The notes below the pieces were generated by a model. The model worked only from the letters and a program-made list of their open reading frames with translations, did no database searches and was not told where the DNA came from. A DNA stretch of 64,000 nt from positions 7,502 to 71,501 of the forward strand of contig JAUSNP010000001.1 in the NCBI GenBank assembly GCA_030645735.1, read 5' to 3'. A program made the position numbers and the translations under genes. Source of the DNA: Candidatus Moraniibacteriota bacterium. GTDB taxonomy: Bacteria; Patescibacteriota; Minisyncoccia; Moranbacterales; UBA2206. Of the stretch, positions 45,177 through 48,047 are shown piece after piece (position 1 is the stretch's first letter; the number at the start of each line of letters is the position of its first letter).

Positions 45177-48047
45177 ATGGAAAGCTATAATCCCAAGGAA
45201 ATTGAGGCAAAATGGCAAGAGAAATGGCTTGAACAAGCCTCAGAGAAGATTGATAAGGACGATACTAAGAAGAAATTCTATATTTTAGATATGTTCCCAT
45301 ATCCGTCTGGCACTGGCCTGCATATGGGACACACCGAGAGCTACACGGCGAGCGATGTTTTCTATCGTTTCAAAAAGATGCAAGGTTTCAATGTTTTGCA
45401 TCCACAAGGTTTTGATGCTTTTGGTTTGCCAGCAGAAAATTATGCCATCAAAACTGGCGTGCCACCGATTGAAACGACCAAGAAGAACATGGAGAATTAT
45501 ATTCGCCAAATGCAGTCTTTAGGTTTCAATTATGATTTTTCGGAGCAGGCTATCACGAGTGATCCAGAATATTATAAATGGACGCAATGGATTTTTTCCG
45601 AGTTTTATAAAAATGGTTTAGTCTATAAAAAAACCCAAAAAACAAATTGGTGTGCTTCTTGTCAGACTGTCATTGCCAATGAGCAAGTGGTAGAAAACAA
45701 ATGTGAACGATGTGGCACAGAAATTGAACAAAAAGAAGTGCCGACTTGGTTTTTCAAAATCACAGACTTTGCTGAAGAACTAATTGCTGATTTGGACGAT
45801 GTTGATTGGCCGGAATATACTAAGAAGAATCAGCGAGCGTGGATTGGTAAAAGTGAGGGTGCTGAAATTAAATTCGAAATTCGAAATTCGAAATCCGAAA
45901 CAAATTCAAAATCAGAAAAACAAAATACAAAACAATTTATCGAAGTATTTACTACGAGAGTGGATACGGTTTTTGGCGTGACTTATGTTGTGGTGGCTCC
46001 AGAACATCCATTAATCGCGCAACTTGAATCGCAAATCGCAAATCGCGATGAGATTTTTGCATACATTGAAAAATCAAAAAACAAAACAGAACTAGATCGA
46101 ATGGAAGCCAAGGAAAAAACGGGTGTAGAGCTTGAAGGTATTAAGGCTGTCAATCCATTCAACGGCGAAGAAGTTCCAGTGTTTGTGGCTGATTATGTTC
46201 TTGGAAGCTATGGCACCGGCGCCGTGATGGCTGTGCCAGCACATGATGAAAGGGATTTTGAATTTGCAAAGAAATATAATTTACCGATTAAAAAAGTTAT
46301 TGAACCATGTTTTGACCAACTTGCCGAGCCAGGAAAAATTAAATGGGACGAGGCATTTGTTGAAAGGGATGCAATCTTAGCCATAGTTAAACATTGGGAA
46401 AAAGATGAGTATCTATGCCTTCAGTGGAAAAAGGTTGACTGGAGAACTTTTATTACTGGTGGACCGGAAGGCGGTCAGTCTTTTGAAGAAGCGGCAAGAA
46501 CGGAAATTTTAGAAGAGACTGGTTATAAAAACTTGAAATTAATTAAAGAGCTACCAATGGTGCATAGTCGCTTTTATCATGTACCAAAAAAAGTGAACCG
46601 ATTTGCTCATTTCAATGTTTTCTATTTTGAGCTAAAGGACGGCGATAAAGATAATATTTCAGATAATGAGCAAGAAAACCACGATACTGTTTGGGTAATG
46701 AGTGACAAAATTGAGCAATTTTTAACTGCCGATTCGCATAAATATATTTTTAAAAATTTAAATAACCCAGAAGTCTCTTTTGTAGAAGATGGAGTATTGA
46801 ATAATTCTGGAGAATATAATTTTTTGACTTCCGAACAAGCGCGGGGAAAAATGACAGCTTGGTTGGAAGAAAAAGGTTTGGGCAAAAAAGTTGTGAATTA
46901 TCGTTTGCGTGATTGGTCAATTTCACGGCAGAGGTATTGGGGTTGTCCGATTCCGATTGTGTATTCACCGGAGGGTGAACCGCATTTGGTTCCAGAGCAA
47001 TATTTGCCATGGAAATTGCCGGAGGATGTTGATTTTGTGCCGACCGGAACTTCACCTTTGGCCAAGTCGCAGGAACTCAAAGAAAGAGTGGAAAAAATTT
47101 TTGGAGAATGTTGGACAGCTGAGTATGATACGATGGACACCTTTGTGGATTCGTCGTGGTATTTCTTGCGCTATCCGGATGTGCACAATGACAAAGAATT
47201 TTGTTCACAAACAAGAAAGGCTTGGTTGCCGGTGGATATGTATATCGGCGGTGCAGAACACACCTACATGCATCTTTTGTATGCCAGATTCTTTGTGAAA
47301 GCTTTGCACAAAATTGGACACTTGAGTTTCAATGAGCCATTTTTGAAATTGCGTCACCAAGGCATGGTCTTGGACAAGGCTGGCAACAAGATGTCCAAGT
47401 CCAAAGGCAATGTCATCAATCCGGATGAAATGGTAGAAAAATTTGGCGCGGATTCCGTGCGTATGTATATGATGTTTGTGGCACCGTTGGAAGATGCGGT
47501 TATGTGGAACGAAGAAAATATTGTGGGTGTGCGCAGATTTTTGGAAAGAGTTTGGCGCTTGCAAGAAAAAATTGTAGTTGAAAATATGGTAGTTGATTCG
47601 CTGACACACAAGACTATCAAAAAAGTTGGTGAAGATGTTGAAGTGATGAAATTTAATACAGCTATTTCCCAGATGATGATTTTGGTTAATGCGATGGATA
47701 AAGAAAAACAGATATCAGTTACGAGTTACGAGTTACTAGTTACTATTCTAGCTCCATTTGCTCCGCACATGGCCGAAGAAATTTGGAACAAGCTTGGGCA
47801 CTCAGAAAGTATTTTTTCCTCAGCTTGGCCGGAGTATGATTCCGAATTGATCAAGGATGAAAAAATAAAATTGGTGATTCAGGTGAATGGCAAAGTGCGA
47901 GACACAATTGAAGTTAATGCTGAAATTTCAGAAGATGAGGCAAAAAAAGTTGCACTTGAAAGTGAAAAAATAAAAAATTATATTTCAGGCAAGGAAATCA
48001 GAAAAATAATTTATGTTAAAAACAAACTAGTGAGCATCGTCGTTTAA
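45177..48047 (+). CDS. leuS: Leucine--tRNA ligase with a ~150-aa NUDIX-like domain inserted between the CP1 editing domain and the catalytic core
   Basis: HMGH, [8 protein letters not shown] and editing-domain [12 protein letters not shown] all present; inserted segment [21 protein letters not shown]...[24 protein letters not shown] fits a NUDIX fold/box. Confidence 0.95.
   Translation: [956 protein letters not shown]
45869..45938 (+). repeat. 7-nt tandem repeat (aaattcg)x4 decaying into aaaNNca heptamers, in-frame in leuS
   Basis: aaattcgaaattcgaaattcgaaatccgaaacaaattcaaaatcagaaaaacaaaatacaaaacaa. Confidence 0.75.
46026..46050 (+). repeat. 7-nt tandem repeat (aatcgca)x3, in-frame in leuS
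   Basis: gaatcgcaaatcgcaaatcgcgatg. Confidence 0.7.
47716..47745 (+). repeat. 7-nt tandem repeat (agttacg/agttact)x4 in-frame in leuS; reverse complement of the infC-rpmI spacer array
   Basis: cagttacgagttacgagttactagttact. Confidence 0.8.

Follow-up and report, generated by a model that had tools for sequence, protein, structure and literature searches.

The leuS gene of a Candidatus Moraniibacteriota bacterium (contig JAUSNP010000001.1; the whole 64,000-nucleotide stretch of it that was analysed is called the window) encodes a bacterial-type leucyl-tRNA synthetase (LeuRS) that hosts, in frame, a Nudix module equivalent to a whole free-standing Nudix protein. The gene is a single open reading frame (ORF) of 956 aa (nt 45177-48047 of the window), and the module occupies aa 377-538 of its product, LeuS (nt 46305-46790); these and all other features of leuS given below are on the forward strand. 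The preferred reading, to which a probability of about 0.5 is assigned, is that a patescibacterial Nudix pyrophosphohydrolase has been inserted in frame in a loop on the surface of CP1, the editing domain, and would serve there as an active, tethered nucleotide 'house-cleaning' hydrolase, most plausibly directed at dinucleoside polyphosphates. Few enzymes are as conserved as aminoacyl-tRNA synthetases, and in LeuRS the CP1 domain is both a drug target and a textbook proofreading domain.

The Nudix module and its host enzyme

The peptides quoted in a preliminary description of this DNA, which had recognised an insertion of NUDIX type in LeuS, are all found in the one uninterrupted ORF at nt 45177-48047: they are of 28 residues (aa 349-376), 21 residues (aa 399-419), 24 residues (aa 427-450, nt 46455-46526), 12 residues (aa 539-550) and 14 residues (aa 576-589). 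The extra length of LeuS where E. coli was said to have a short linker is borne out (157 residues, compared with 12 in the E. coli chain). LeuS aa 325-388 align with residues 312-375 of the Thermus thermophilus enzyme (1h3n) and aa 532-596 with residues 374-438, and therefore approximately 143 residues of LeuS have no counterpart; close LeuRS relatives without an insert have 24-69 residues where this segment of LeuS has 174. The site had been placed between the end of CP1 and the next segment of the enzyme, but it is instead inside CP1, because the sequence GVLNNSG...KVVNY that follows the insert aligns to T. thermophilus residues 374-438, which belong to the same domain; the editing-domain profile PF13603 matches aa 220-381 with its positions 1-146 and is broken at position 146 of 185. 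Canonical bacterial LeuRS (T. thermophilus 1h3n/2bte, E. coli 4aq7 and N. gonorrhoeae 7nu3), 35-37% identical to LeuS, share with it the domain order, the HIGH and KMSKS signatures and the CP1 editing residues, but have a loop of 12-20 residues in the place of the Nudix module of about 150 residues.

The Nudix hallmarks reported for the insert are confirmed by profile comparison: PF00293 matches aa 410-525 with 41.6 bits (E = 1.5e-10) when the whole protein is the query and with 45.5 bits (E = 9.5e-12) when the insert alone is the query, the gathering cut-off being 21.1 bits. An independent Nudix fold is also predicted by AlphaFold2 (AF2): the insert alone, modelled with 28 homologues as alignment, reaches a mean predicted local distance difference test (pLDDT) score of 94.7 and a predicted template modelling (pTM) score of 0.88, and aa 380-530 have a pLDDT of 90-95 in the full-length model. 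The model of the insert has the alpha/beta/alpha Nudix fold and strong Nudix structural neighbours, and as modelled the insert is an autonomous Nudix fold with conserved metal-binding glutamates. A self-splicing element was considered and rejected: the whole segment is taken up by the Nudix fold and contains no HINT domain according to Pfam, despite a cysteine near its start (in EPCF), and the sequence ...NNSG, before which the insert ends, belongs to the conserved G.L.NSG sequence of LeuRS itself, present in enzymes that have no insert.

The 23-residue Nudix box (aa 428-450, nt 46458-46526) reads G428-GPEGG-Q434-SFEEAAR-T442-E443-I-L-E446-E447-T-G449-Y450. The glutamate triad of the REx2EE motif, which the preliminary description had singled out, is intact: E443, E446 and E447 are kept in 150, 146 (with Gln in five others) and 151, respectively, of 151 non-redundant embedded domains that occupy the same LeuRS site as the LeuS insert (site 1), and all three are kept in 13 of 13 domains at a second site. 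The full 23-residue consensus Gx5Ex7REUxEExGU is not matched by the insert, which has Q434, T442 (with an arginine at position 441) and a final tyrosine. This variant of the box is a trait of the subfamily rather than a sign of decay, because it is carried by all 30 free-standing relatives that were found with the insert as the query; positions 434 and 442 are non-catalytic, and a fully canonical box is found in many LeuRS-embedded copies of other lineages. Downstream of the box, in the X-loop, lies a family-specific motif of 10 residues (aa 466-475, nt 46572-46601; 16-25 residues past the box) that conforms to the near-invariant pattern [FY][YF][HA]xxKxxNR: the lysine at +21 and the asparagine at +24 are each present in 149 of the 151 site-1 domains and the arginine at +25 in 130, and position +17 is tyrosine in 86 and phenylalanine in 58. 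In LeuS this position is Tyr467. The X-loop has a recognised role, and a tyrosine about 17 residues past the box correlates with hydrolases of diadenosine polyphosphates (ApnA) (Dunn 1999, reviewed in PMC5389931); Tyr467 would place the insert on the ApnA branch, as a correlate and not as proof. The insert is conserved at least as much as the rest of the enzyme (P0032, core 75% and insert 83% identical to LeuS; P0126, core 55% and insert 67%; here and below, P and L numbers designate proteins and loci compared in the analysis), which suggests purifying selection on a predicted working enzyme. The alternative that the insert is a degenerate structural module, raised earlier, is unlikely.

The synthetic and editing motifs of LeuRS are intact around the insert. 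The product of leuS exceeds the cut-off of the bacterial LeuRS equivalog TIGR00396 (969.8 bits, cut-off 548.4), contains three Pfam domains (class I catalytic, LeuRS editing and anticodon-binding), and is 100% identical to a protein (P0031) of a metagenome-assembled genome (MAG) named Candidatus Moranbacteria by NCBI. Its full-length AF2 model (pLDDT 88.6, pTM 0.78) superimposes on LeuRS of N. gonorrhoeae, E. coli and T. thermophilus with target-normalised TM scores of approximately 0.8. Base composition is even across the insert, and the reading frame is unbroken. In an alignment of 56 LeuRS, invariant residues include H49, G51 and H52 of the HIGH signature (HMGH, aa 49-52, nt 45321-45332); T259, T260, D263, T264, H356, D357, R359 and D360 of the editing site, all of which lie in the part of CP1 that precedes the insert (aa 220-376, nt 45834-46304, PF13603); G539 and S544 in the part that follows it (aa 539-575, nt 46791-46901, delimited by alignment with T. 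thermophilus); and K738, M739, S740 and K741 of the KMSKS signature (aa 738-742, nt 47388-47402). The anticodon-binding domain (PF08264, 77.8 bits) extends over aa 808-918 (nt 47598-47930). The only segment of LeuS with a pLDDT below 50 in the full-length model is a low-complexity, hypervariable CP1 loop (aa 240-250, nt 45894-45926, within a 16-residue peptide), delimited by pLDDT and DNA identity; it falls in a second short hypervariable stretch (nt 45837-45956, LeuS aa ~221-260) that is only 0.48-0.52 identical in DNA sequence to the nearest allele. Other LeuRS have a serine-hydrolase or Nudix insert at the position of this loop, as in P0187, where a Ser_hydrolase domain is inserted after the equivalent of aa ~244.

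Spread of the family and exchange of cassettes between leuS alleles

A profile of the Nudix family matched 1108 cluster representatives at E <= 0.001 and 96 at E <= 1e-30, among 1.84 billion representatives. The best 150 of these include 99 that are LeuRS or LeuRS fragments according to phmmer and four more that are LeuRS fragments according to Pfam, the remainder being mostly free-standing proteins. At least 250 loci were confirmed on contigs taken from one genome per species, and 74 of the best 80 are embedded in a LeuRS ORF. The named hosts are Moranbacteria, Paceibacterota, and Nomura-, Adler-, Taylor-, Kaiser-, Jorgensen-, Sungi- and Staskawiczbacteria; many MAG records of LeuRS with the family (L009, L011, L012, L073, L075, L076, L087 and others) are titled 'uncultured Candidatus Saccharibacteria', 'Gammaproteobacteria' or 'Methanosarcinales', which are probably taxonomic labels of bulk submissions and not the true hosts. 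The preliminary description had allowed that the insert might prove to be a common, lineage-specific LeuRS linker lacking the Nudix box; the insertion is indeed common and lineage-specific among related LeuRS, but the box is present, so that only half of this proviso holds.

Approximately 215 of 264 embedded domains occupy the site of the LeuS insert, some 20 are found where CP1 begins (near aa 210), and a few are close to aa 245 and to aa 600-630, making up to four sites in all. LeuRS of at least 900 aa carry one copy in 155 cases, two in 11 and three in six. The sizes of LeuRS with inserts reach 1330-1735 aa, and the longest ORF (1735 aa) is found at L041. Sister copies within one LeuRS are only 21-46% identical to each other, and the best match of a copy in a different LeuRS, which tends to occupy the same site, is in most cases 60-73% identical to it (range 30-76%); such copies are therefore old paralogues that have been maintained separately. 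No second copy of the family is present elsewhere in the 64 kb window, where the family hidden Markov model (HMM), applied to all six frames, matches leuS only.

The descent of the module differs from that of the gene around it. A DNA cassette at nt 46257-46856, delimited by DNA and protein identity to the locus L091 and its product P0033, did not descend together with the remainder of leuS: over this interval the DNA of the window is 0.38-0.68 identical to that of L091, compared with 0.85-0.98 across the greater part of leuS when the cassette and the CP1 loop are set aside (a few 60-nt blocks fall to 0.68), and the two loci are syntenic (SulP, leuS, NTP_transferase) with flanking genes 84-88% identical. 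In 20-aa blocks, the identity of LeuS to P0033 is 0.9-1.0 across most of the flanks and 0.25-0.55 at aa 361-560. P0033 has the nearest core (87-88% identical) but a canonical-box Nudix domain only 39% identical to the LeuS insert, and LeuRS with cores 55-57% identical have inserts that are 64-67% identical to it. In a neighbour-joining tree of the LeuRS core, all types of insert are interleaved. The same behaviour is seen most sharply in L088, L089 and L090, three loci that are syntenic but come from different samples, and whose LeuRS cores are 96% identical: their leuS genes are unalignable at nt ~1075-1680 and mostly 90-98% identical in DNA sequence elsewhere, and they encode no insert, one Nudix domain and a quite different Nudix domain. 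No direct repeats were seen on inspection of the junctions of these three loci. Such comparisons show that closely related leuS alleles gain, lose and exchange the module by recombination, for which homologous recombination by way of the conserved flanks would be the simplest mechanism.

Free-standing relatives, a second synthetase and other cargo

With the insert as query, free-standing proteins of Parcubacteria and other Patescibacteria were retrieved (156-227 aa, 37-53% identical) that align with it from the N-terminal region through the C terminus, and therefore the inserted unit is the equivalent of a whole gene. These proteins, among them P0003 and P0004 ('NUDIX hydrolase [Candidatus Staskawiczbacteria]'), share with the insert the variant box GQT...AAR[AMT]E..EETGY and the downstream motif F[YF]HxPKxxNR; they are functionally uncharacterised and are encoded by separate genes, whereas the insert lies within LeuRS. 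Some of these genes are neighbours of leuS. At L004, the gene of P0003 ends 2 nt before that of a 957-aa LeuRS that itself embeds a divergent Nudix domain; at L037, a free copy is directly upstream of a LeuRS gene with an embedded copy; and L058 shows the unfused state, with a free copy that stops 5 nt short of a leuS gene lacking any insert. Other free copies adjoin sua5, a HAD hydrolase gene (as at L002, where a HAD_2 gene adjoins the free Nudix gene) or miscellaneous genes. At L042, another Nudix gene (7126-7725) is located 1.4 kb downstream of a leuS gene with three Nudix copies; it was not counted as a family neighbour, since its canonical box (GHVEEGEE...REIREETGL) looks like that of a different Nudix family.

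The same Nudix family, recognised by the motif KFYAVHKDVNR, is present in archaeal-type prolyl-tRNA synthetases (ProRS) of 641-674 aa (P0275 and P0298-P0301; five clusters), where it separates the anticodon-binding domain from the C-terminal one. The closest ProRS relatives without the insert are named Nanoarchaeota or Woesearchaeota (DPANN). The occurrence of one Nudix family in two unrelated synthetases is the best argument for a functional association.

LeuRS loops also accommodate enzymes of other kinds. A Pol-beta-type nucleotidyltransferase of approximately 150 residues replaces the Nudix domain at the same site in P0045, P0046, P0049, P0050, P0084, P0085, P0135 and P0139; it matches PF10706 (ANT(2'')) and weakly resembles the lincosamide nucleotidyltransferase Lnu(D) (E = 2.9e-5). 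In P0084 it is located a few residues further downstream than in relatives such as P0085, and hence derives from a separate insertion event. Also found were a Ham1/ITPase domain (P0189, aa 984-1167, 197 bits), a HAD_2 phosphatase domain (P0205, aa 654-808) and Ser_hydrolase/alpha-beta hydrolase domains (P0187, aa 245-360; P0245, aa 601-766), and P0136 and P0146 belong to the same group of LeuRS with inserts of these enzymes. Inserts of ~100-135 aa at the same site in P0125 and P0128 (aa ~372-530) and in P0054 (aa ~370-500) have no Pfam match. Nudix enzymes, ITPases and HAD phosphatases are classic enzymes of nucleotide house-cleaning. A curated precedent for a small-molecule enzyme in a class Ia synthetase is NCBIfam NF040702, an isoleucyl-tRNA synthetase (IleRS) with a GNAT N-acetyltransferase domain, which differs from LeuS in both the synthetase and the added domain (GNAT rather than Nudix).

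The neighbours of leuS are housekeeping genes (SulP, NTP_transferase, MurA, MreB), and no flanking mobile-element or defence genes were found at the leuS loci inspected. A phage or mobile-element origin was rejected in view of these neighbours, the lack of junction repeats and a scan of IMG/VR with the family alignment that yielded no relative; membership of a defence system was rejected as well, there being no PADLOC match for the insert or P0003 and only a match of E = 0.0021 to a candidate model for P0004. Within the window, a weak HAD_2-family gene (nt 49883-50533; 24.6 bits, cut-off 23.8) lies approximately 1.8 kb downstream of leuS. Three other class I synthetase genes are present, those of arginyl-tRNA synthetase (ArgRS, nt 16251-17840), IleRS with DUF5915 (nt 18805-21813) and methionyl-tRNA synthetase (MetRS, nt 32981-34387), and the family HMM matches none of their products. 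Further afield are an ORF of 1722 aa with Ig-like, HYR and PKD domains (nt 18-5186), probably a giant surface protein, and, among housekeeping genes, a gene for a KilA-N domain protein (nt 54720-55616), of a family with frequent links to phages or mobile DNA.

Possible function of the embedded Nudix domain

According to the preferred reading, a complete Nudix pyrophosphohydrolase of a Patescibacteria-specific family would have entered the CP1 surface loop in frame, and the tethered domain would hydrolyse Ap4A to Ap6A, which are dinucleoside polyphosphates, or similar adenylylated by-products, such as aminoacyl-tRNA synthetases form from the aminoacyl-adenylate; the tether would ensure co-expression at a fixed ratio as well as proximity, and aminoacylation and editing need not change. 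The intact triad, the conservation of the family and its position suggest an active hydrolase that works while tethered to LeuRS. ApnA is the leading candidate substrate because synthetases are a main cellular source of Ap3-5N (PMC7705103), because the characterised proteins that seem nearest in fold act on ApnA or polyphosphates, because of the tyrosine at +17 past the box, and because a second synthetase hosts the same Nudix family; among the candidate substrates named in the preliminary description, Ap4A-type nucleotides and aminoacyl-adenylates, ApnA may be called mildly favoured by the fold neighbours and Tyr467 taken together. The ApnA- or polyphosphate-type Nudix proteins in question (T. 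thermophilus Ndx1, M. tuberculosis Rv2985, DIPP1/NUDT3, DDP1, CT771 and RppH), together with E. faecalis 2azw, are 14-25% identical to the insert, which differs at the Gx5E and R positions of the box; none of them is embedded in a synthetase.

Several observations weigh against this reading. The fold neighbours, at 14-25% identity, have scores that are close together, and no function is known for 2azw, the best match. For the insert, all NCBIfam functional models score below their cut-offs (RppH, NF001936, 24.4 bits compared with 118), and an assignment of substrate by curated models was abandoned, the matches to RppH, YffH/AdpP, MutT, NudI and NudB all being far below their cut-offs. The box itself departs from consensus at two positions (Q434 and T442), a feature that, from the sequence, may count against activity. 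The module is absent from alleles with 96% identical cores, and is therefore dispensable for the function of LeuRS. The presence of unrelated enzymes at the same and other sites, and of several sites and copies, argues for a permissive scaffold rather than a mechanism specific to LeuRS. LeuRS is not known as an unusually strong producer of Ap4A.

The main rival, a possible explanation but one against which the odds stand, is that an independent house-cleaning enzyme with no functional relation to LeuRS hitch-hikes on a permissive scaffold: LeuRS is large, abundant and tolerant of insertions in streamlined genomes, and its conserved flanks ease recombination. This would account for the unrelated small enzymes in LeuRS loops (ANT(2'')/Lnu-like, Ham1 ITPase, HAD_2 and Ser_hydrolase), for at least four insertion sites with one to three copies, for presence, absence and replacement among syntenic alleles with 96% identical cores, and for the position of most examined free-standing copies away from leuS. 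It does not readily explain why LeuRS contains approximately two thirds of the family members that can be detected, why three of about 11 free-standing loci adjoin leuS (far more than expected by chance in genomes of ~1000 genes), or why the same family was independently inserted in ProRS. The very fast turnover of modules between near-identical alleles might alternatively mark a fast-evolving site that acquires enzymes against nucleotide-like toxins or antibiotics acting on LeuRS or tRNA-Leu, or in phage-host conflict, and the likeness of alternative modules to antibiotic-modifying enzymes (Lnu(D)-like, PF10706) and the GNAT-bearing IleRS of NCBIfam are in keeping with this; it is nevertheless unlikely, as the insert matches no PADLOC defence model, no member of the family was detected among the viral contigs of IMG/VR, the synteny is that of housekeeping genes with no mobile-element or defence genes flanking, and the copies, which are old, show conservation and not diversification.

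A non-catalytic role for the fold, as a ligand sensor (NrtR-like), a binder of RNA or protein (resembling CFIm25 or mitoribosomal L46) or a spacer that modulates the movement of CP1, is suggested by the deviant box and by the location of the domain on the mobile editing domain. It is given a slim chance, since the metal-binding triad is near-invariant, the same deviations of the box occur in free-standing proteins, and a module that is dispensable in close relatives and inserted at several sites is a poor fit to a precise structural role. Although the source is a MAG, a chimeric assembly or a frameshift that fused separate genes is extremely improbable: the ORF is uninterrupted with no break in composition, the full-length model is confident, and the artefact is excluded by the recurrence of the same in-frame layout in over 170 full-length LeuRS that come from independent assemblies (NCBI, JGI, ENA and Logan).

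No paper describing the LeuRS-embedded Nudix architecture was found in the open-access literature and bioRxiv, and a 2017 review of the Nudix clan makes no mention of synthetases (PMC5389931). In public databases the proteins are named inconsistently ('class I tRNA ligase family protein', 'Leucyl-tRNA synthetase' or 'NUDIX domain-containing protein'). Synthetases with an added domain are already known, and the cassette behaviour is the most unusual aspect of the present case. A more speculative proposal, put forward tentatively and more probably wrong than right, is that patescibacterial LeuRS is a recombination-driven cassette platform in an essential gene, where accessory enzymes (several Nudix paralogues, nucleotidyltransferase, ITPase, HAD and serine hydrolase) would enter surface loops and pass between near-identical alleles, and in which the Nudix domain would act in cis on ApnA or adenylylated by-products or on a nucleotide-mimicking inhibitor of LeuRS, its turnover being driven by selection (conflict with host, competitor or phage) and not by drift. 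The insertion in ProRS would fit a general coupling of synthetases to this Nudix family in ultra-small symbionts.

That an essential synthetase routinely bears one to three active-looking hydrolases or other small enzymes, swapped between alleles that are 90-98% identical in DNA sequence, is an unusual form of protein evolution, and the alleles map, in nature, the sites at which LeuRS permits insertions. The analysis also defines a large and as yet uncharacterised family of Nudix proteins, the substrate of which is within reach of simple assays. If the module acts on by-products such as Ap4A, LeuRS of these minimally regulated organisms would have a built-in link between translation and the control of alarmones and the nucleotide pool.

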